NCBI GenBank assembly: GCA_963703285.1 | Contig: OY969807.1 | Span: forward strand, 1,728,001 to 1,792,000 | Direction of reading: 5' to 3' | DNA length: 64,000 bases | From: an uncultured Nitrososphaerota archaeon | GTDB taxonomy: Archaea; Thermoproteota; Nitrososphaeria; Nitrososphaerales; Gagatemarchaeaceae | Part shown: positions 6,108 to 14,965 of the stretch, piece by piece | Numbering within the stretch: position 1 is the first letter of the stretch | Layout of the letters: every line of letters starts with the position of its first letter | Program-made: the position numbers and the translations under genes | The notes under the pieces: model-generated | What the model saw: the letters and a program-made list of their open reading frames with translations, nothing else | What the model was told of the DNA's origin: nothing | The model's database searches: none

Positions 6108-6395
6108 CGAAAAATCTCCTTCGAGGTGATCAATAATGAGTCGGATGCTCGCGAGGTGGGTCGCGAAACTTCGATCAAAACTGGGGGATCAAGAGGGATA
6201 CTACGTCAAGGGGAGTGGCCGGGTTTACGTACCTAGTGCCTAGACTAAACGAGATACCAACCGTCGTCAGCCAGTACCACGAGCTGGAGGTAGAGAGGGA
6301 GAGATACAAAGCGTGGTTCCGAAGAGTCTGATTCCGACAATTCTCAAGATCGAGGCGAGAACATATCCTTGGCAAAGAATTCCAGGCGATTCAAA

Positions 6396-7685
6396 ATGAG
6401 CATAACCTCAGAGACTATCGCTATTGCGAGGTCGTACACCTCACCAACCACGAATACGACTCTGGCGACAGTCGACAGTTCATCGTATGGGGAAGATCTA
6501 TTGTTTCGTTTTGTAATCATTGAGTCTGGAGAAATGCGATACCTTGGACTCATAGAGAATGTAAGCGTCGAACCCGAGATAGCCAGGCCCAGGAGAGATG
6601 AACCACTTCGAGAGATCTACCCTACCGTGCTGAGGATTAGGAATCTCCTCCATCGTAGAGGCAAAGGTCTCCCATCGATGGTGCGGAACCCGCCTAGACC
6701 TGAAGCAAAAGTGTATTTCGCATCAGATGAGGATCTGGTCAAGTTCTTCCCCCCTCGAGTCTCCTCACCGCCAGTCTATCTGGGCCATCTTAGGGACACC
6801 GGTTACCGTTTACCCCTGGATTCCAGCGTCCTCAGTTTTGCAAATACGGGCATCCTCGCAGGGATCGGTCATGGCAAGTCTCATCTGGCGGCACAGCTAG
6901 TACTCCAGTTGCATCTCGCAGGCAGGAAGGTCGTCGTCGTAGACCCTTCTGGGGAGTGGGCGTCGTTGCTGCGTGAACTGAGCGATAAGCTCGGTGGGGA
7001 GCTGAGATCGCGCATTTCAATATCGATACTCCCCTATTCTCTGGACTCCGAAAACTTGGAGGTGTTCGCAGGGAAAACAATTCAGGAATTCAACTCAGGA
7101 AATCTAACAATAATTGACGCGTCGCTCTTACAGCACCAAGGGTTGGCCGAGGATAAGATAAGAGCGCGATGCGACTTGGTGTATCAAATCCAGCAGAGAC
7201 TTATGGCCGAAGCTACGCGAAGTTATGACAAGGCCAAGTCCCTCTACGCCTACGATGGCTGCGTCGTGCTGGATGAAGCCCACGAGTTCATCCCATCTGT
7301 TCCCAACTTCGAGATACAGAAGAAGCTCAACACACTCTTCTCGATTTCGACAAAGGAATACAGGAAGTACGGCCTGGGCCTTATATTCATAGACCAGTCG
7401 CTCAGAGCGATTCACGAGGACCTGCAGGTCCAGGCGTATCTTCTTGGCATGACCGCAACGCCCGGAGATTTAGAGTTCCTGCGGGCGCGTCTTGGAGGCC
7501 ATGTCGCTGACGCCGTCCAGAGAACACGAAGGGCGGAGAATGTCTCGACGTGGGTTGCATATGGGCTTGCAACACCTTTCCCCGGAATCCCTTGGGAAAT
7601 CGTGTCCTTCTCAGATTCCAATGAAGGTCGGCTTCTCAGCACATCCTTCCTTCATATCAACCGGAAGCAACCTTGTCCGAAATGA
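6396..7685 (+). CDS. HerA/FtsK-superfamily ATPase (HAS-barrel + DUF87-like)
   Basis: RYLGLIENV barrel-like N-terminus, Walker A AGIGHGKS, VVVDPSGEW, Walker B VVLDEAHEF, KEYRKYGLGLIFIDQ. Confidence 0.85.
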   Translation: MSITSETIAIARSYTSPTTNTTLATVDSSSYGEDLLFRFVIIESGEMRYLGLIENVSVEPEIARPRRDEPLREIYPTVLRIRNLLHRRGKGLPSMVRNPPRPEAKVYFASDEDLVKFFPPRVSSPPVYLGHLRDTGYRLPLDSSVLSFANTGILAGIGHGKSHLAAQLVLQLHLAGRKVVVVDPSGEWASLLRELSDKLGGELRSRISISILPYSLDSENLEVFAGKTIQEFNSGNLTIIDASLLQHQGLAEDKIRARCDLVYQIQQRLMAEATRSYDKAKSLYAYDGCVVLDEAHEFIPSVPNFEIQKKLNTLFSISTKEYRKYGLGLIFIDQSLRAIHEDLQVQAYLLGMTATPGDLEFLRARLGGHVADAVQRTRRAENVSTWVAYGLATPFPGIPWEIVSFSDSNEGRLLSTSFLHINRKQPCPK

Positions 7686-7984
7686 GTTAGATGTAACTGG
7701 ACCTCGTTTGAGATTGCTGGCGTTTCACCTGAATCGGATACTCCTGTTCCAGAGACAAGAGTCACATTCCCTCGATTCATCACTGCGTTGACCGTAGCGT
7801 TAATCCGGATCTGAACCTGCGCCGAAGATTGAGAGGCCTGGAGGGACCGATAGTCGAAGGCCGACACGATGGGCGTGACGATTACTCCGAGCACCAGTAA
7901 TGCGGACGAGACTGCGACGACGAAGGAGACACGTAACACAATGTGGTGCTGCCGTAGATTCATTAGCGTTCTCACCACAAGCAT
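7652..7984 (-). CDS. putative secreted/membrane protein, possibly truncated
   Basis: Signal-like hydrophobic stretch VSFVVAVSSALLVLGVIVTPIVSA; 3' end overlaps the HerA gene. Confidence 0.45.
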   Translation of the reverse strand: MLVVRTLMNLRQHHIVLRVSFVVAVSSALLVLGVIVTPIVSAFDYRSLQASQSSAQVQIRINATVNAVMNRGNVTLVSGTGVSDSGETPAISNEVQLHLTHFGQGCFRLI

Positions 7985-8041
7985 ACCAATTGGTTGTGTA
8001 AAAGTCTATGCGTGTTTGCCCGCCCTTCGTCCGCCTCAACC

Positions 8042-8083
8042 TTACGAATTTAGTAACTTCGCCCTGAATAGTGCGCTAATATT
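8042..8083 (+). promoter_or_regulatory. 15-bp palindrome plus TATA upstream of small peptide gene
   Basis: TTACGAATTTAGTAA (8042-8056, 6 of 7 pairs); CTAATATT 8076-8083; ATG at 8104. Confidence 0.55.
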
Positions 8084-8103
8084 CGTCGCGGCACCCCGCG
8101 CCC

Positions 8104-8250
8104 ATGAGAATATCGTTACGGAACAACCGCTACCTCTGGGTTCCCGTAGTCCTCGGGTCAATCGCGATCGTCCTCGCGATTCACGGGCTCCACCCGCTCC
8201 ACGTCGGCGCCCTCGACGGAGACCCGATAGGACCCGGCGCGCCGACCTGA
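8104..8250 (+). CDS. 48-aa secreted peptide precursor (not in ORF track)
   Basis: MRISLRNNRYLWVPVVLGSIAIVLAIHGLHPLHVGALDGDPIGPGAPT*; basic N-region, hydrophobic core, short acidic Gly/Pro tail; GC3-rich codons; stop ends 4 nt from the convergent regulator stop. Confidence 0.7.
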   Translation: MRISLRNNRYLWVPVVLGSIAIVLAIHGLHPLHVGALDGDPIGPGAPT

Positions 8251-8254
8251 CAGG

Positions 8255-9352
8255 CTAAGAGTCATATCGCATCTTAGCGACTGAGAGGATGGAGGCAAGG
8301 GCCGTCTCCGAGTCGAAGACCCACCCTCGCTCATCGGTGAAGCTCTCGTACGGGATGGTATAGTGCATGCTGGTTGGGAGATCGAGGAGATAGGTCTTCC
8401 ACGGCGGGAGCGACATCTCCCCCAATCTGGCGTTCAGGAACTCCAGCGAACGGACTAGCTCCTGGACGGGGATTGCCTGGTCCGCTCTGTAGCTTCCGTC
8501 ATGGGACCCTGCCTCGTACCAAGCAAAGGGGAAGTTGTTGAACAGCAGCCTGACCTTCCCGAGTTGTGACCTGTTCAGGTGACTGAATCCGAAGGACACG
8601 CCGGCGACTCTCGCCGTGTTCGCTCCACGCGCCGGAATCCAGTGCACCCTGTGGTGAGAGATGATCGGCAGGACGTGTTTCCTGTAGTGCCACCTCAGCG
8701 TCACCGCGTTCATCTTGAGCTTCTTGGAAATCTGCGCGAGGTTTCTCAGCGAGCCAGCTTCAAGCTCTTTAATCAGCAGGAGGTCGCTCCGGTCGATTGC
8801 GGGTTTCACGCGTGGCTGGTCCACAGTAATCGGGGAAGGAGGAGCCTCGAGATTGGTCCCGACCTCCTCCCAGTCGATGTTCCAGCGCCCAGAGTCAAAG
8901 TCATAGTAGCGACACTTCAGCTCTGGGTTCCTGGCCCATTCCATCCTGTTGAGCTCCACGGCACTCAGGACTCCTTTATCAACGAGGCCTCTCATGAATG
9001 CCTGGAACTGGTCTTCCACGAGCACTGGGACCGCAAACAACCCGATATGCGCTGGTTCCAGGAGCATCCCGGAGCGATATGTCAGGAACCCCACATTTGC
9101 GAGTCTGTCGAGGATTGAGCTGGCATGCGGCAGGGCGTCGGGGGCGAATCTGATGATCGCAGAGTACCTCTGCAGGCCCAACTCACCCAGGTTGAAGACG
9201 GTCTCGACGCTCAGGTCGAGCTCGGGGAACCTCTTCTTGAGAGTGTACCTTATGGTCTCTTTGGGCATGCCCGTTGCGCGCGAAAGAGCCGCGACGTTCT
9301 TCATCCCGACGCGGTCTATCACCTGAATCAGGTCCGCAATCCTCGCGCTCAA
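8255..9352 (-). CDS. tandem HTH / Lrp-AsnC-like transcription regulator
   Basis: HTH1 NVAALSRATGMPKETIRY; HTH2 IDRSDLLLIKELE..LAQISKKLKMNAVTLRWHY; ferredoxin-like inter-domains. Confidence 0.85.
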   Translation of the reverse strand: MSARIADLIQVIDRVGMKNVAALSRATGMPKETIRYTLKKRFPELDLSVETVFNLGELGLQRYSAIIRFAPDALPHASSILDRLANVGFLTYRSGMLLEPAHIGLFAVPVLVEDQFQAFMRGLVDKGVLSAVELNRMEWARNPELKCRYYDFDSGRWNIDWEEVGTNLEAPPSPITVDQPRVKPAIDRSDLLLIKELEAGSLRNLAQISKKLKMNAVTLRWHYRKHVLPIISHHRVHWIPARGANTARVAGVSFGFSHLNRSQLGKVRLLFNNFPFAWYEAGSHDGSYRADQAIPVQELVRSLEFLNARLGEMSLPPWKTYLLDLPTSMHYTIPYESFTDERGWVFDSETALASILSVAKMRYDS

Positions 9353-9446
9353 CAGGAATGCTATTAACGAATACCCTAATAACGGCTCCTATCTTTGTGA
9401 AAGCTTTATTACCCAGATGTTATCATTTAGGCCATAGGAATTGTGA

Positions 9447-9812
9447 ATGCTGGCCCAATCGATAAGCACAGAGGGCGTCGAGTCGATGGTGAGGAGGTAT
9501 AGGCGGGGCTTGGTTAACTCCCTGCTCGAGTACCTGATACTGGACAACGCCGAAAGGCGAGACGTTTGCGGCTACGACATCATCGCGACGGTCTGCGTGG
9601 ACTTCCAGGTATTGCTCAGCCCGGGTCAGGTGTACCCCGTCATCGATGCGATGGAAGCCGGCGGCCTGATTACGAAGGTGAAGAAGATGAGGAGAGTCTC
9701 GCTAAGTTTGACCCCCCTCGGTTACGTCCTGCTCAAGGCGTGGAGAAACGAACTTGGTCTGATGCAGCTGCGTCTTAACAGCGACCCTCGCCCCATAGAG
9801 CATGTCCACTGA
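9447..9812 (+). CDS. PadR-family transcription regulator
   Basis: GYDII, LSPGQVYPVIDAMEAGGLI, SLTPLG. Confidence 0.85.
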   Translation: MLAQSISTEGVESMVRRYRRGLVNSLLEYLILDNAERRDVCGYDIIATVCVDFQVLLSPGQVYPVIDAMEAGGLITKVKKMRRVSLSLTPLGYVLLKAWRNELGLMQLRLNSDPRPIEHVH

Positions 9813-9839
9813 TTCTAGGCAGGTGTCCGATGAAGTAGC

Positions 9840-10169
9840 ATGATCAATTGGATGCAGTTCAGGATACGTTCGAAGTTGCTGAGCGCCAATCTGCAGTTGG
9901 TCATCCTGTCGGCTCTGCGCTGGCGGCCGATGAGCAATTGGGAGCTGTTGGATGAGATTTACAGCAGAACCGGCTTGATGCCGGAGGATGCAGAGCTCAA
10001 GCGAACCATCCGGCTTCTCGTTGACGGGGGGTTTGTGCAAGTCCCGAGCAAGGATTCACAGTCCCGGATGACCATCAACGCGCGCGGCATCGAACTGCTC
10101 TCAGAGCTGGCGGGGCTTCAGCAAGGGTACTTCGAGTCGACAAAAGCGTGGGATAGAAATCATGGGTGA
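9840..10169 (+). CDS. PadR-like wHTH protein
   Basis: VILSALRWRPMSNWELLDEI..LVDGGFV..INARG. Confidence 0.75.
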   Translation: MINWMQFRIRSKLLSANLQLVILSALRWRPMSNWELLDEIYSRTGLMPEDAELKRTIRLLVDGGFVQVPSKDSQSRMTINARGIELLSELAGLQQGYFESTKAWDRNHG

Positions 10170-10193
10170 ATTCGCTAAGCAATCGCGGATTGG

Positions 10194-10454
10194 TTGAGAA
10201 TGCGGTCTAATCTAACCCGGAGGAAGGAGTTGGCGGAAAGGATGTGCGTCCTCGCTGTGGGCTTGGGCGCGGTCTTGACCCTCGTTGATATCTGGGCCTT
10301 CCTCGCAGGATCCACCGGCCTCTTGCAATGGATGGAGATTCTTACATTTAGTGTCCTTATACCATTGACCGTCGCTGTTGGGGCCCTCGCTCCGGGCAAA
10401 GTTCCGAGGCTCTTTACTCGAGCCATGAGGGCCTTGCGCACCAGGAAATCGTAA
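10194..10454 (+). CDS. small two-TM membrane protein
   Basis: Two hydrophobic segments; co-directional with the PadR genes. Confidence 0.55.
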   Translation: MRMRSNLTRRKELAERMCVLAVGLGAVLTLVDIWAFLAGSTGLLQWMEILTFSVLIPLTVAVGALAPGKVPRLFTRAMRALRTRKS

Positions 10455-10466
10455 GGAGATGTTTCG

Positions 10467-10601
10467 ATGTATTCAGGCAGTGCCATTACCTGTGTGCGTA
10501 TTGCAGACACCTACAAGCTACGCGAGCTCAAGGACGGGTCGAAGCACCTCGTCGTGAAAGACCACCTCTCGAAGGAAGAACTGGTCCGCATGCTGCAGTG
10601 A
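10467..10601 (+). CDS. possible 44-aa protein or gene fragment
   Basis: MYSGSAITCVRIADTYKLRELKDGSKHLVVKDHLSKEELVRMLQ*; AAGGAG upstream. Confidence 0.3.
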   Translation: MYSGSAITCVRIADTYKLRELKDGSKHLVVKDHLSKEELVRMLQ

Positions 10602-10811
10602 AACAAGGTCGGGATCAAAGAAGAGGACGTGTTCTACGGTGAATGCTACTGGTTCTTGAGTTACCGGATTTGAAACGGCCAAGAAGATAACCAACCATGA
10701 GATGACCACCGAGCTCTCCCTAGGGGTAGCCAAAAGACTAGACACTAGGTGACGTAAGTTCTCCGTCGAGTTGAGGACGTGCGTAAATACGCTGAGGACT
10801 GAGATACGGCA

Positions 10812-12467
10812 ATGGAAAGCCGCCGTGAAGCAGCAGCCGTGTCCATCACGCTCTTCTTCCTCCTGCTCTCCCCCTTGTTCTCCGCAGCCTCTCCCGCCGC
10901 TTCTTCCCCCTTACCCCTTCCCTACCAGCTGGGCGTCCTCCTGTCCGGGTATTACGAGCCGATCCAGCTTAATGCGCCAGCGACGCCGACGACGGTCTAC
11001 TTCGCCGTGAGCAGCAACGCCACCCTCTCGACCGCTCTCATGACCAACTCGCAGGCGACCTCCTTCGGCTATGGAACGACGGACCTTGCCGACTCGCTCT
11101 ACGATGTGAACAGTAGCAGCGCCACGCACTCCATGAGCGTCTCTGAGGGGATCTACTGGCTCGTCTTCTTCGCCTACGGCTACAGCGCGAACGTCAGCTT
11201 CGCTCTCTCGACCGTTCCCACCAGCCCGTACGTCTACTACCCCCTCACCGCGCCCGAGCCCTCCGGGGTCGCTTCCTTCGGTCTGTACAACGACTCCGGG
11301 GTGGTGACATCGTACACGGTCGAGAGCAGCGACGTCCTCGGCGTCGCGGACATAGCCTCGCTCCAGGCCTACAACGGGTCGGCAGCGCGCTACGACGATG
11401 CGGTCTCGGGTGCCTCTCTCCAGCTGAACTCAATCCTCGTGGTCAACGAGGCGGGAGGCCGGCAGCAGAACTACTGGGTTCAGGACATTCCCGATTTCGT
11501 GACCGCAACTTCGACGGTCTCCTGGGCCGACAACATCTGGAACGCCAGCGTCTCGGGCTTCCTGAGCAACGGCACCGTCACCTCGACCGACGGCGGGTAC
11601 GTCTACTCGTTCCCGAACGGCCCCAGCACCGGGTACTACTACTCCTACCAGTCCTCGAACACCACGTATCGGCTGCCCCTGGATTTGGCCCTAATCATGA
11701 GCGAGACCGCCGTCCAAGGAGTCGGTGTCCGGGTCCAGATTGGCGTCCAGGAGATCGCCAGCGGGACCGCGGCTGCCAAGTCGATCGACTGGTTCGACAA
11801 CGCAACGATCAGCGACCCCACTGTGCAGAGCGCGTACTTCTACGTCGCGGGCAACGCGGCCGCGCCGAACGGGGAGTTCTATGACTCCGAGTTCGTCTTC
11901 GGCGGCGAGGGCAACGGAGAGTCCACCACCTTCACGCAGCTCACCGCTTCGCTCGGGCTGTTCTACGGGAATTCGGTCACCGGCGCCCAGACCGCCTACC
12001 CCTCCCTCTACAGCTTCGGAGGCAACACGGCCGAGGGCGCGTACAATCTGCACATCTCCTACGCGGGCGACGGGTTCTCCAGCGTATCGGTGGGCAGCCC
12101 CAACTATGTCTACCTGGGGCGGGCGTCAGGGTCCTATACGCTGCCTCCCGCAGGAACGCAGACGACGAGCTCCACGACGAGCTCGAGTACGGCGTCGACC
12201 ACGACCACAGTGACGAGCACGCTGCTGCTCACGACGACCGCGACGACGACCGCGACGCAAACCGTGACCGGACCGGTCACGACCGTGACCAACACCGCGA
12301 CATCGACGCAGACCGTAACCTCAGTAACGACGCAGCTTGGCCCAACAACAACGACGCAGACCTCCTCGTCTGTGCCGACATGGGCCTATGCAATCATGAT
12401 ACTCCTCCTGATAGCCGGACTTGCTGTAGGTTACGCCATCAAGAGACCATCAGTCAGCAAGCCTTAG
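10812..12467 (+). CDS. thermopsin-family (peptidase A5) protease, secreted, Thr-rich stalk and C-terminal TM anchor
   Basis: PSGVASFGL, GASLQLN, YWVQD, DNIWN, DSEFVFGGEGNG, NTAE motifs; signal peptide; Thr-rich linker; WAYAIMILLLIAGLAVGYAIKR. Confidence 0.9.
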   Translation: MESRREAAAVSITLFFLLLSPLFSAASPAASSPLPLPYQLGVLLSGYYEPIQLNAPATPTTVYFAVSSNATLSTALMTNSQATSFGYGTTDLADSLYDVNSSSATHSMSVSEGIYWLVFFAYGYSANVSFALSTVPTSPYVYYPLTAPEPSGVASFGLYNDSGVVTSYTVESSDVLGVADIASLQAYNGSAARYDDAVSGASLQLNSILVVNEAGGRQQNYWVQDIPDFVTATSTVSWADNIWNASVSGFLSNGTVTSTDGGYVYSFPNGPSTGYYYSYQSSNTTYRLPLDLALIMSETAVQGVGVRVQIGVQEIASGTAAAKSIDWFDNATISDPTVQSAYFYVAGNAAAPNGEFYDSEFVFGGEGNGESTTFTQLTASLGLFYGNSVTGAQTAYPSLYSFGGNTAEGAYNLHISYAGDGFSSVSVGSPNYVYLGRASGSYTLPPAGTQTTSSTTSSSTASTTTTVTSTLLLTTTATTTATQTVTGPVTTVTNTATSTQTVTSVTTQLGPTTTTQTSSSVPTWAYAIMILLLIAGLAVGYAIKRPSVSKP

Positions 12468-12523
12468 GATCAACGTGTAGGATCCACCCGTTTCTGTCAG
12501 TGGAGAGACCTACAGCGAAATCA

Positions 12524-12928
12524 TCAGAGAATCCGGCGAGATTCAGCAAGGGCGCGGTTCATCCGGTCAGTCCCCCTGATGTTGTGTATGATCACGTAGA
12601 CGAACGACGCGGCCAAGCTGACCAGCATGCTGTCTCCTAGGACCGTCCGAACGGTCTGAGCCTCGACCGGCATCGCGATGAGCGGAACGAGGTTGTAGGC
12701 GGCCGCCGGGAGGGCTATCACGAGTGCCAACTCGAGAGGGAAATACGCCATCGGGCCGTGCCTGGGGCCGAACCTCCGGAGGAAGTATCTGCAGAGCTGG
12801 TTCTTCTCGAACTTCCCTGCATCGCCGGTCATCCTGACCCCCAGCGACGCATGCCTCCAAGTGGTGAACTGGTCTCCAATGCACGCGAGGAGGGCCAGAC
12901 CCAGGAGAGCGGGATAGAACGGGAGCAC
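12524..12928 (-). CDS. membrane protein, DUF5658-like
   Basis: D..TT....G...E.N motif (GDQFTTW..LG..FEKNQ) and 3 TM segments. Confidence 0.55.
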   Translation of the reverse strand: MLPFYPALLGLALLACIGDQFTTWRHASLGVRMTGDAGKFEKNQLCRYFLRRFGPRHGPMAYFPLELALVIALPAAAYNLVPLIAMPVEAQTVRTVLGDSMLVSLAASFVYVIIHNIRGTDRMNRALAESRRIL

Positions 12929-12972
12929 GAATCGCCTGCGTTGCGGTTTCTAATAAATGGAACCTGAGCAGG

Positions 12973-13215
12973 TCAGGGGTCTATCCAATCCAGCCCCGTC
13001 TTGGCCCTCCTCCGGCGCGGCCTGTCCGAGTACTCGGAGAGGGGCGGCCTCGCCGAGACCTGCGACTCCGGGACCGGCTCCTTCCTGTAGGGATGCCCGG
13101 CGAAGTCATAGTCGTCGCAGATGGCCTGTGACGGCACGAAGTCCGCATTCTGCAGATGATTCGGGGACAGGTTCTCCGAGGGGATGAACCTGCCAAAGAT
13201 ACTCGCAGTAATCAA
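12973..13215 (-). CDS. hypothetical protein
   Basis: Co-directional ORF filling the gap between regulator and membrane gene; start uncertain. Confidence 0.35.
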   Translation of the reverse strand: MITASIFGRFIPSENLSPNHLQNADFVPSQAICDDYDFAGHPYRKEPVPESQVSARPPLSEYSDRPRRRRAKTGLDWIDP

Positions 13216-13244
13216 TCCACGGCTACGGATCTACAAACAAGCAG

Positions 13245-14447
13245 TTAACTTGCGGTTTCTAGACCTTCCTTTTTCGTCGGGCTTCCATTCTGTTTGGAGA
13301 CAACATTTCGGAGGGTTCGTTCGAAATTCTTCAGGACCTTTTGCTTGTCGTACCTCCACCTCTTCAGCTTCGGGTCGTACAAATCCTGCGGCAGGGTGTA
13401 GTTCCGGTCTTGGCGCTGGTCGAAAGTGAGGACCTCTAGCCGCTCGGCGTGGTGACCCAGGAGGTCCCTGATGAACACGAGCGTCTCGTTCCAGAATTCC
13501 ACCGGCGCGTAGAAGTCCGCTATGAATGACGTGCCTCCCCCTGTGACGGCCCAGATGAAGGGAAGTCTCTGCAGCTCCCTACTGATGAACTTCGCTTCCT
13601 CTGGTGTCACGTCCTTGACTATGAGCGAGATGAAGGCGTACGCGTGGCTTCGCGTCAATTGTAACGCTGCGTCGTTGAATTCCCTGGAGAACCACCTAAT
13701 CCGGTAGCCGGAGATCAGCTTCCTGTCTCGAACGTGGGCGTAGTGGAGGAGGGCGCTCTTGTACGAGATCTTCAGCTTCCTCGCGGTCTCGGCCACCGAG
13801 GCTCCGCCCGGCATCTGGAGCTCCGACGCGACCAGTATGTCGAGCATGTCGAACTTGGAAAGCTGGTGCAGCGACGGATGGTCCAGATCGGGGGGCGGGT
13901 CCTTCAGCGAGTTCCACTGAACTTCCCATTTCGAACTGACGAAGTCGTACTGTTCGGCGTGCATCGGGACCCTGTATATCCAGCCTACGTCGAACACCTC
14001 CACATCCGTGAAGAAGCGCAGCTTGTCCCTCAGGTCGCGCAGGGTCGACGCGAACTCCTCCTTCACATCCTCGGGGACCTCCGCGGAGACCAGCAGCCTG
14101 TCGTCCGGGATTGTCCGCTGGTAATGAACGACGGGCCAGTAGTCAGCCATCGCCATGAAGATCTGGTGAATGTATGGTCTGTACTCTTCCCTCACACGTG
14201 CCAGCGCGGTCAGCCTCTGTAGACCGAATCTGCCGTAGGCGGCGTCACCGATGATATTCATGCCCTTGTCTATTATCCTCTTCTTGTACAGGTACCTTGC
14301 CGTCTCCTTGAACAATCCTACCCTTCTCGAGATCTCATTGATGTTGGGACCCAGCTCTTCTATCCCTCTGACCAGGGCGGCCATCCGAGCCTTCTCGTCC
14401 TCGGATTTCGCTGCTCTCAGTCTCAGGACTTCACTGGATTTGCTCAT
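13245..14447 (-). CDS. tandem HTH / Lrp-AsnC-like transcription regulator (paralog of 8255-9352)
   Basis: GPNINEISRRVGLFKETARY; GLQR; YDFVSSKWEVQW; FDMLDILVASELQ..VAETARKLKISYKSALLHY; same motif order as paralog. Confidence 0.85.
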   Translation of the reverse strand: MSKSSEVLRLRAAKSEDEKARMAALVRGIEELGPNINEISRRVGLFKETARYLYKKRIIDKGMNIIGDAAYGRFGLQRLTALARVREEYRPYIHQIFMAMADYWPVVHYQRTIPDDRLLVSAEVPEDVKEEFASTLRDLRDKLRFFTDVEVFDVGWIYRVPMHAEQYDFVSSKWEVQWNSLKDPPPDLDHPSLHQLSKFDMLDILVASELQMPGGASVAETARKLKISYKSALLHYAHVRDRKLISGYRIRWFSREFNDAALQLTRSHAYAFISLIVKDVTPEEAKFISRELQRLPFIWAVTGGGTSFIADFYAPVEFWNETLVFIRDLLGHHAERLEVLTFDQRQDRNYTLPQDLYDPKLKRWRYDKQKVLKNFERTLRNVVSKQNGSPTKKEGLETAS

Positions 14448-14601
14448 CTCTGGTTTTCCTTCGGGTTGCGCGTTATCGCCTTGGAGCGTCTGACTGTTGA
14501 TAAGGTTTGACCTGTACCGTACCTCCGTGACTCCTGGGATAATCCATGGTATGAATTGCGCGGTCAGATTATATATTCAGTATGTTAGCTACCGCCATCT
14601 T

Positions 14602-14645
14602 GCATAACCTTTATGCCATTTAGCTTATGCAGATAGGCTTATATC
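14602..14645 (+). promoter_or_regulatory. 15-bp palindrome, extra half-site and TATA upstream of secreted peptide gene
   Basis: GCATAA-CCT-TTATGC (14602-14616), TTATGC (14625-14630), CTTATATC (14638-14645), ATG 14669. Confidence 0.65.
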
Positions 14646-14668
14646 CCGTAGGACGTCATGCTACGGCC

Positions 14669-14965
14669 ATGAACAAGACAGCTATCGCGGCTCTATTTGC
14701 GGCGGCAATGCTTATCCTGGTTCCAGCTGCGGCTCTCACTGCCTCGGCTGACGACGGTGCTGCTGGAGGTGGTGGAACCGGGGGCGGTGGTTCAACAAGT
14801 GGCGGTGTCACCGTAACAAGCACGGAAGGAGCCAGTCCGCCATCCTGCTACGTGCTATTGGTACTTGCTTGGGGTTGGGGAACTATAGGCCCCTTCATCG
14901 TCTACGGTCTGTTCCCTACTTTCGAGCAGGTGTGCACTTCATACCCCCCGCCGAACGTCGTCTAG
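14669..14965 (+). CDS. 98-aa secreted peptide: signal peptide, Gly/Ser linker, two-Cys hydrophobic C-terminal domain
   Basis: MNKTAIAALFAAAMLILVPAAALTASA|DDGAAGGGG..SCYVLLVLAWGWGTIGPFIVYGLFPTFEQVCTSYPPPNVV. Confidence 0.75.
   Translation: MNKTAIAALFAAAMLILVPAAALTASADDGAAGGGGTGGGGSTSGGVTVTSTEGASPPSCYVLLVLAWGWGTIGPFIVYGLFPTFEQVCTSYPPPNVV

Follow-up and report, generated by a model that had tools for sequence, protein, structure and literature searches.

A 64,000-nucleotide (nt) stretch of DNA from an uncultured Nitrososphaerota archaeon of the family Gagatemarchaeaceae (assembly GCA_963703285.1, contig OY969807.1, positions 1,728,001 to 1,792,000; referred to here as the window) carries a gene for a double Lrp/AsnC-type protein, RegA, which stands tail to tail with a 48-codon micro-peptide gene, pepA. 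The evidence supports RegA and the pepA product of 48 amino acids (aa) as a conserved, dedicated regulator/micro-peptide cassette, the pairing of which is found in most of the regulator family and the partners of which co-diversify. The cassette can be read, with a probability of roughly 0.45, as one copy of a widespread archaeal module in which the micro-peptide would serve its cognate regulator as ligand or signal. Its parts are listed below in window positions.

8104-8250, plus strand: pepA, a 48-codon micro-peptide gene of type 2, convergent with RegA and ending 4 nt from the RegA stop.
8044-8103, plus strand: pepA promoter region, with a conserved block made up of TTAGTAAC (8050-8057) and ATAGTGCGCTAATA (8068-8081).
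8255-9352, minus strand: RegA, 365 aa, a fused double Lrp/AsnC-type protein of the type-2 clade.
About 8843-9352, minus strand: N-terminal half of RegA, a winged helix-turn-helix (wHTH) followed by a RAM-like domain.
About 8258-8800, minus strand: C-terminal half of RegA, again a wHTH and a RAM-like domain.
9447-9812, plus strand: PadR1, a small PadR-like wHTH protein, divergent from RegA.
9840-10169, plus strand: PadR2, a second small cassette protein that has no Pfam match.
8039-10277, no strand: duplicated extent of the pepA-RegA-PadR1-PadR2 cassette, with its second copy at genome positions 2160475-2162713.

The original prediction, made from the letters of the window, had placed a small signal-peptide open reading frame (ORF) at 8104-8250. 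This ORF exists, is convergent with RegA across a 4-nt gap and encodes a basic N-terminus and then a hydrophobic stretch. The product, MRISLRNNRYLWVPVVLGSIAIVLAIHGLHPLHVGALDGDPIGPGAPT, continues with the dipeptide H-G and a 20-residue tail that ends in the Pro/Gly core G-D-P-I-G-P-G-A-P-T. The GC content at third codon positions (GC3) is 0.78, as for neighbouring genes. Eight loci from named metagenome-assembled genomes (MAGs), L040 to L047, hold RegA orthologues that are 45-82% identical, and an intact convergent pepA-like ORF lies just downstream in seven of them; the ORF in L046 is broken, apparently by a frameshift. In the type-2 alignment (A2) the invariant residues are M1, P14, H27, G28, H33, G39, G43 and P47.

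The duplication of the cassette provides a second view of the gene. The two copies are 97.8% identical over 2241 bp and fully identical over the central 1985 bp (8185-10169), so that all 67 differences fall at the two edges, 27 of them in 8041-8184 and 40 at the other edge. The diverged left edge comprises the first 27 codons of pepA, and the boundary lies at the H-G junction between the hydrophobic segment and the tail. The copies look like the outcome of a recent gene conversion over an older duplication. In the diverged copy the pepA frame has stayed open with eight amino-acid changes, mostly hydrophobic for hydrophobic, whereas the other two frames vary freely. The ratio of non-synonymous to synonymous substitution (dN/dS) between the copies is 0.35 in the pepA frame, compared with 0.67 and 2.45 in the other two, and for pepA overall it lies at 0.35-0.50. 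pepA is a real, conserved gene.

Upstream of pepA, about 45 bp of promoter sequence are conserved across 14 type-2 loci while the flanks diverge. The TATA-like box TAATATT at 8077-8083 lies 27 nt before the ATG, which makes a very short leader, or none, likely. The composite promoter motif occurs twice in the single-contig genome of 2.25 Mb, both times at a pepA copy, and the conserved element may be the operator of RegA. A 15-bp palindrome had been proposed at both peptide promoters; upstream of 8104 there is none, and the sequence there offers only the AATATT within the TATA-like box and a pair of 6-nt arms, ACGAAT/ATTCGT, with 31 nt between them.

The two genes on the far side of RegA do belong to the cassette. 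PadR1 is found beside the RegA orthologues in 8 of the 8 loci L040 to L047, and PadR2 is syntenic in the same 8 of 8 at 31-63% identity. The family names are less firm than their description as two PadR genes implied. PadR1 can be called PadR-like at a sub-threshold level (PF03551, E 3.4e-5, 24.2 bits under a 27-bit cut-off; weak PDB PadR matches, E 0.005-0.6). PadR2 has a weak best PDB match to chain 3elk (E 0.27) and its family is unverified, and no likeness between PadR1 and PadR2 is detectable.

RegA has a paralogue further along the window.

13245-14447, minus strand: RegB, 400 aa, a double-Lrp protein that belongs to a peptide-less clade.

RegA and RegB are recognised as paralogues by 25% identity (BLAST, E 1e-25). 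A second BLAST segment aligns the N-terminal half of one with the C-terminal half of the other (E 0.004) and reveals an internal duplication. Taken singly, neither protein reaches the threshold of any Pfam or NCBIfam model; PF13404 run against the window proteins gives RegA a sub-threshold E of 0.25 and RegB no match. Searches of both against PDB sequences reached no match, and a word-indexed homologue search with RegB returned RegB alone. Because the single proteins match no model, the label Lrp/AsnC-like can be tested at the family level only. An exhaustive HMMER search yielded 277 cluster representatives at E≤0.001, 50 of them at E≤1e-30, and 106 of the representatives were used for a family profile. 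This profile matches the archaeal Lrp structures 2efo (E 2.9e-11) and LrpA 1i1g (E 4.8e-11). The match runs from profile position 190 to 321 against chain residues 2-125 and covers the whole C-terminal half, helix-turn-helix (HTH) and RAM together; position 190 aligns with residue 1 of both 2efo and 1i1g. The AsnC-type HTH model PF13404 is matched by 80 of the 106 family members, and the only database names carried by members are "AsnC family protein", "Lrp family transcriptional regulator" and "hypothetical protein".

Structure prediction gives the same picture. The AlphaFold2 (AF2) model of RegA built with the family alignment has a predicted local distance difference test (pLDDT) score of 95.2 and a predicted template-modelling score (pTM) of 0.92, compared with a pLDDT of 34 from the single sequence. 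It consists of two successive units, each a three-helix wHTH followed by a beta-alpha-beta-beta-alpha-beta domain, and each unit is followed by a short extra beta segment with a near-invariant tryptophan (W157 and W344). The best Foldseek match of the model is NirDL (4ch7, E 7.3e-10, template-modelling scores TMq 0.51 and TMt 0.58), and the runners-up are single Lrp/AsnC regulators that each cover one half (TMt 0.57-0.67). The description of the two proteins as paralogous double-HTH, Lrp/AsnC-like chains of 365 and 400 aa is confirmed: RegA and RegB are single-chain double Lrp/AsnC proteins, each with two copies of wHTH plus RAM.

The relationship to known Lrp/AsnC proteins (feast/famine regulatory proteins, FFRP) is one of homology in the module and difference in its arrangement. 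The wHTH and RAM module of RegA is homologous to that of archaeal members such as Pyrococcus furiosus LrpA (1i1g) and Sulfolobus tokodaii ST1022 (2efo), and the palindromic candidate operator beside RegB is a further likeness. Lrp/AsnC proteins are monomers of about 150 aa that form homodimers or octamers, whereas in the RegA family a single chain of 365-400 aa joins two modules, each RAM is followed by an additional conserved segment with a tryptophan (W157, W344), and there is a dedicated micro-peptide gene; the known Lrp ligands are free amino acids, bound at the RAM interface. A word search of a 2010 review of Lrp finds neither "tandem" nor "fused" nor "duplicat" (PMC2995911). The sole solved protein with the same fused double-Lrp architecture is the siroheme decarboxylase NirDL/AhbA-AhbB (4ch7, 4czc). 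NirDL differs from RegA in its 11-13% identity and a root-mean-square deviation over 10 Å, and it is an enzyme of haem metabolism that has no peptide partner. No haem-pathway genes were seen among the conserved neighbours of family members, and the siroheme-decarboxylase family is not among the 25 most-matched of the 47 families matched by the 106 members. The RegA family is by descent a fused variant of Lrp/AsnC and not a standard member, and it defines a new fused Lrp family that domain libraries miss.

The pairing of regulator and peptide was surveyed in the genome of origin and 40 relatives (41 genomes), with the flanks of every full-length match, which gave 104 unique family proteins. The genome of origin has ten family members. 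At least one family member is found in 24 of 24 sampled genomes of the same taxonomic family, and in 6 of 16 from other families of the order. Hidden Markov models (HMMs) built from the first peptides recognise a convergent adjacent peptide-family ORF beside 58 of the 104 (E≤0.01), and a leaderless type-3 micro-ORF stands beside 6 more. Three further HMM hits fall beyond the counted set, namely beside the second, identical RegA copy, beside a split regulator in L084, and in L031, where the peptide frame overlaps the regulator 3' end beyond the distance window used. A six-frame scan of the whole genome of origin gave exactly four HMM hits, all beside family members; together with one type-3 ORF they cover five of the ten paralogues. 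Stop-to-stop distances between regulator and peptide range from -22 to +144 nt.

The enrichment of small ORFs beside homologues of the regulator, which had been proposed as a test, is also found with a generic criterion. Convergent ORFs of 25-90 aa that contain a hydrophobic 15-mer and have a stop within -60 to +150 nt are present beside 53 of the 104 family members, and for the remaining long ORFs of the genome of origin the figure is 86 of 1145; since the relatives are kin and the sample is not independent, an enrichment p-value is not to be taken literally. In a quick maximum-likelihood IQ-TREE of 103 regulators, the type-2 clade (support 99) has a peptide in 13 of 13 members, types 1 and 3 make up 49 of the 54 members of another clade, and within that clade type 3 branches from among type 1 (support 100). 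The RegB clade has none in ten, and it includes four other paralogues of the genome of origin. One-to-one pairing has been kept through the expansion of the paralogues. In 17 loci a transcription factor B (TFB) paralogue adjoins the double-Lrp gene (6 of type 3, 9 of type 1 and 2 peptide-less), an example being L003 at genome positions 638310-639350.

Three peptide architectures track the regulator clades, and they have in common a C-terminal Pro/Gly core, D-P-x-G-x-x-G-P, in one to five tandem copies. Type 1 (45 loci, about 40 aa; MTQDEKVRYGLIALGGASLVFAALGIHGHPSPLEFMGTAGSA in the genome of origin) starts with the conserved M-T-x-D-E-K-V-R-Y, after which comes a hydrophobic stretch. Its G25 is invariant. 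In 33 of 34 sequences A, T, S, G or V stands two positions before this Gly, and 33 of 34 have a presequence of 25 aa; next come [LVI]-H and a tail of 13-20 residues with P-L-[DE]-x-x-G-G-x-G. Type 2 (13 loci, the RegA clade) has a distinct basic N-terminus, the invariant H-G, and one, two or three 16-residue units that end in G-D-P-G-G-x-G-x-P-N, for which pepA has its own variant. The 10-residue cores of type 2 do not vary inside one precursor but do so from genome to genome. Type 3 (6 loci) lacks the hydrophobic segment altogether and consists of Met and 4-5 residues followed by [DE]-P-I-G-G-F-G-P-S-Y once, three times or five times. The type-3 gene of the genome of origin (MNTQTEDPMGGVGPSN) is a 16-codon ORF at genome positions 636973-637023 with one copy of the core, convergent with the paralogue at genome positions 637044-638228 and 21 nt from its stop.

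The main argument for the core comes from type 3. Type-1 sisters of type 3 already end in P-L-D-P-T-G-P-G-P-L-T and I-L-D-P-I-G-G-V-G-P, and leaderless type 3 derives from the leader-bearing form by loss of the N-terminus and multiplication of the tail. From this origin it is argued that the C-terminal core is the functional unit. The core persists despite the loss of the hydrophobic leader, and to judge by the sequences it is the unit under selection. Across the peptide genes dN/dS is 0.10-0.50, with a median of 0.32 among 74 type-1 pairs. Of 42 type-1 genes, 35 have a TATA-like box 26-33 nt upstream of the ATG. A TGCAA half-site at -60 to -30 is present in 12 of 42 type-1 promoters against a shuffled mean of 1.2, an enrichment that is suggestive only, as the sequences are kin and the motifs were picked post hoc. 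Public protein sets contain 156 relatives of the type-1 family, all of them unnamed or "hypothetical", and a Pfam scan of four peptides gave no family at E≤1. Sec signals have an n/h/c layout with small residues at -3 and -1, and by this hand rule the presequence of 25-29 residues in types 1 and 2 can be read as a putative Sec-type signal.

The signalling mechanism put forward here is plausible and is offered as a proposal. The regulator, a built-in pseudo-dimer in a single chain with two wHTH and two RAM-like domains, would bind the conserved element in the promoter of its peptide gene. Its RAM pseudo-dimer would sense the C-terminal Pro/Gly core of the peptide, about 10-20 residues long, as cognate ligand. 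The N-terminal segment of 25-29 residues in types 1 and 2 would act as a Sec-type signal, so that the core would be released outside the cell and re-import would be needed. Precursors with two or three cores would require further proteolysis, and uptake of the released core by oligopeptide transporters would complete an autoinducing circuit. Type 3 would supply the same core in leaderless form, as leaderless communication peptides do. Several peptide and oligopeptide ABC transporters are encoded by Gagatemarchaeaceae according to passages of PMC10640624, which describes this non-ammonia-oxidising archaeal group of acid soils.

Binding was also modelled. Co-folding of RegA with pepA gave an interface score (ipSAE) of 0.32 (runs of 0.32, 0.36 and 0.28), compared with 0.04 for the best of three controls. 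The mark used is reached by 58 of 80 solved complexes and by 2 of 110 mismatched pairs, and passes at or below 0.60 comprise only 7 of the 80 solved complexes and both passing mismatches. The runs agree in at least 70% of contacts, with a partner pLDDT of 41-43. The co-fold lends weak support to binding of pepA by RegA.

Several observations weigh against a ligand role for the peptide. The co-fold pass falls in a weak class, in which most passes are wrong unless the pairing had been probable from the outset, and no interface was returned. About 40 of the 104 family members, RegB and four other paralogues of the genome of origin included, have no recognisable peptide. Both groups have in common 18 residues with a conservation of at least 85%, none of which the peptide-less members have lost, only three weak columns (K39, E207 and L219) separate peptide-bearing from peptide-less regulators, and no pocket emerged when peptide-specific residues were sought across the regulators. 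Because the peptide-less members keep every conserved residue, the conserved core of the regulator is not peptide-specific. Adjacent genes co-diversify even if their products never touch. When 101 loci were clustered, no transporter, protease or modifying enzyme was found to be conserved within 1.5 kb. The absence of an export signal from type 3 means that an extracellular route is not general. The sequencing runs listed as containing 7800-10300 are five soil DNA runs from two studies only, with no RNA run among them. In other families of the phylum, a convergent small ORF was recognised by eye beside 9 of 60 full-length members.

Four other explanations have to be set against the ligand reading. 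The micro-peptide could be a small effector that is secreted or sits in the membrane, such as a modulator of membranes or a peptide that binds metal; the double-Lrp protein would control its gene but would sense an amino acid or another metabolite, as classical Lrp/AsnC proteins do. A local regulator beside its target is the commonest arrangement of Lrp-type proteins, and this explanation agrees with the conserved, dedicated promoter elements of the peptide genes, with the conserved residues shared by the peptide-less paralogues and with the weak co-fold result. It leaves unexplained why every paralogue keeps a private peptide, why the core is multiplied one to five times and outlives the hydrophobic segment, and why the genes are paired tail to tail within a few nucleotides; we consider it unlikely, and the most serious competitor. 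A membrane tether or anti-regulator, in which an uncleaved single-pass peptide would hold and release the regulator through a cytoplasmic N-terminus (M-T-x-D-E-K-V-R-Y in type 1), is improbable. In its favour, type 1 conserves its first 9-10 residues to the same degree as its tail, with K6 nearly invariant, and the hydrophobic stretch, about 17 residues long, might cross a membrane. Against it, type 3 keeps and multiplies the core although both the N-terminal motif and the hydrophobic stretch are missing, and the N-termini of type 2 are unrelated to those of type 1.

The product might also be irrelevant, with the Pro/Gly-rich micro-ORF acting in cis by its translation or by convergent transcription (antisense, or interference at the regulator 3' end). 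The convergent genes do abut or overlap the regulator stop (-22 to +144 nt) and the cores are rich in Pro and Gly, as such a switch would have it. The constraint, however, is at the amino-acid level (dN/dS is 0.10-0.50 for the peptide frame, while the other two frames of the same stretch give 0.67 and 2.45), the signal-like geometry is conserved and the core repeats are identical as protein, which leaves the cis switch still less probable than the tether. Least probable of all, and scarcely to be expected, is a precursor of the ribosomally synthesised and post-translationally modified peptide (RiPP) kind, with repeats as natural-product cores and a double-Lrp partner that is a non-regulatory, peptide-binding or peptide-modifying protein. 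Multi-core precursors are typical of RiPPs, and the best structural match, NirDL, is a siroheme decarboxylase, that is, an enzyme with the Lrp fold. Against this, no modifying enzyme, protease or transporter is conserved within 1.5 kb in the 101 clustered loci, the family profile matches DNA-binding Lrp regulators and most members have the AsnC-type HTH, and the likeness to NirDL at 11-13% identity reflects a common fused architecture.

The cognate-ligand reading finds its closest models in bacteria. In the RRNPP(A) systems of Bacillota and phages (Rap-Phr, PlcR-PapR, NprR-NprX and PrgX) a cytoplasmic DNA-binding receptor adjoins its own peptide gene, as RegA adjoins pepA. There are many private receptor-peptide pairs per genome, to which the five peptide genes of the genome of origin, all beside a family member, can be compared. 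In the RRNPP(A) precursor a signal-like segment at the N-terminus precedes an active part at the C-terminus, as is predicted for the pepA family. Some shp genes of the Rgg/SHP systems are convergent with rgg. Rgg/SHP and RopB-LCP of Firmicutes resemble type 3 in that short peptide genes that have no classical signal lie beside a cytoplasmic receptor; they differ in that the receptor is not homologous to RegA and in that type-3 cores are repeated up to five times. Published accounts describe leaderless RopB-LCP peptides that act as intercellular signals (PMC10518010) and Rap-Phr propeptides with tandemly duplicated cores, a precedent for multi-core precursors (PMC11343458). The receptor fold of RRNPP(A) is TPR, whereas that of the RegA family is Lrp/RAM, which is unrelated and from a different domain of life, and no TPR family is among the matches listed for the 106 family members. 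Lacking the defining TPR receptor, the RegA module is not a member of the RRNPP or Rgg systems, though it is alike in design.

The double-Lrp form extends beyond the order. Of 301 genomes sampled across the phylum, 129 match the family profile at E≤1e-10. Ordinary single Lrp proteins account for many of the weaker matches, and the full-length double-Lrp form is present in many taxonomic families of the phylum. Look-alike clusters of 350-415 aa in the ESM Atlas come from Nitrososphaerota, Bathyarchaeota, Thermoproteota and Thermoplasmatota. Among the nine small ORFs recognised by eye, a 44-aa family accounts for two genomes and a 45-58-aa family for five; the others are a single ORF of 26 aa and a repeat ORF. 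The last (L115, G238:C54) is convergent, has 69 aa with five G-G-P-I-G-I-P-V-P-L repeats and lies about 94 nt past the regulator stop, apparently an independent instance of a double-Lrp gene accompanied by a multi-core Pro/Gly peptide.

The original prediction had paired RegB, too, with a small peptide and had placed a surface protease between the two regulators. The features concerned are as follows.

14669-14965, plus strand: 98-codon ORF ("pepB"), divergent from RegB, with a signal-like N-terminus; an orphan of uncertain coding status.
14602-14616, no strand: 15-bp palindrome GCATAA-N3-TTATGC in the intergenic region between RegB and the 14669 ORF, with a further TTATGCA at 14625-14631.
10812-12467, plus strand: thermopsin (A5 peptidase), membrane-anchored (PF05317, E 8.4e-57, 193 bits, profile 4-256 of 256).

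The 14669 ORF exists as described, divergent from RegB and with a signal-like N-terminus, which ends in A-S-A and is followed by a Gly-rich stretch and a second hydrophobic segment near the C-terminus; its promoter is plausible, with TTATAT 30 nt before the ATG. Its pairing with RegB as a second cassette is rejected. The clade of RegB has no peptide in ten members, neither the 40 related genomes nor the loci retrieved yielded a homologue of the ORF, and its codon use is atypical, with a GC3 of 0.54 beside the 0.74-0.84 of most neighbouring genes. Of the proposed pairing of each regulator with a small peptide, the RegA-pepA half stands as conserved and under selection and the RegB half falls. 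The ORF may at best be a lineage-specific gene, which RegB may control through the palindrome. That palindrome is present as predicted; archaeal Lrp boxes are built in a comparable half-site style, and it is a candidate Lrp-type operator. RegB would most likely be an ordinary local Lrp-type regulator acting at the palindrome in its own upstream region.

The membrane-anchored thermopsin was correctly recognised. It has a Ser/Thr-rich linker and a C-terminal hydrophobic tail, and it lies between the two regulators. As a part of the module it is rejected, being syntenic in none of the eight orthologous loci L040 to L047, and the other "secreted" genes are likewise not syntenic with the cassette in these loci; a circuit around a surface protease is consequently not supported. 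The thermopsin gene has a paralogue, with 88% nucleotide identity between window positions 10917-12130 and genome positions 678366-679579.

Further observations concern the surroundings of the cassette. At 7652-7984 (minus strand) lies a 110-aa ORF whose product has a hydrophobic segment at the N-terminus. A paralogue at 46% identity stands next to the second copy of the cassette (L010), a relative is present in L041, and the product may be secreted and the gene loosely linked. The ORFs 10175-10510 (minus) and 10194-10454 (plus) overlap on opposing strands; both are matched in L040 and L042, and the latter has the look of a two-helix membrane protein. A gene for a HerA/DUF87-type ATPase at 6369-7685 (plus strand) has a GC3 of 0.58 against 0.74-0.84 for most nearby genes; this gene and the ORFs at 7652-7984 (0.57) and 14669-14965 (0.54) may be recently acquired DNA. 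The closest named relatives of the RegA gene come from MAGs of bog, palsa and soil labelled Candidatus Gagatemarchaeum, Nitrososphaerales, Nitrososphaerota or Thaumarchaeota.

The original prediction knew of no described archaeal equivalent, and the literature search agrees: in open-access full text and bioRxiv, no archaeal peptide-based signalling, peptide-sensing transcription factor or module of this kind was found. As far as this literature goes, the RegA-pepA module is real, conserved and undescribed. A wider claim would hold that archaea communicate by ribosomal peptides. Double-Lrp proteins would then form a new class of cytoplasmic receptor outside the TPR type, and their RAM pseudo-dimer would bind a Pro/Gly-rich pheromone of 10-20 residues, released by cleavage of a precursor that is exported in types 1 and 2 and leaderless in type 3 and whose gene lies tail to tail with the receptor gene. 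Each paralogue would be a private channel, with up to five pairs in the 2.25-Mb genome of origin, and the system would be ancient and spread over several archaeal phyla; this larger claim is doubtful.

The module recurs as many private pairs in abundant, uncultured archaea of acid soil and peat, and relatives of the regulator are found in other archaeal lineages. It is also compact, comprising one soluble 365-aa protein, one promoter of about 60 bp and one peptide. Even on a minimal reading, the findings define an unannotated micro-protein family with 156 relatives, together with a new family of fused Lrp proteins. Should the peptide prove to be the ligand, the effectors of the Lrp/RAM fold would range from free amino acids to gene-encoded peptides. 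If true, this would provide an archaeal analogue of the RRNPP systems of Gram-positive bacteria, reached with an unrelated fold.

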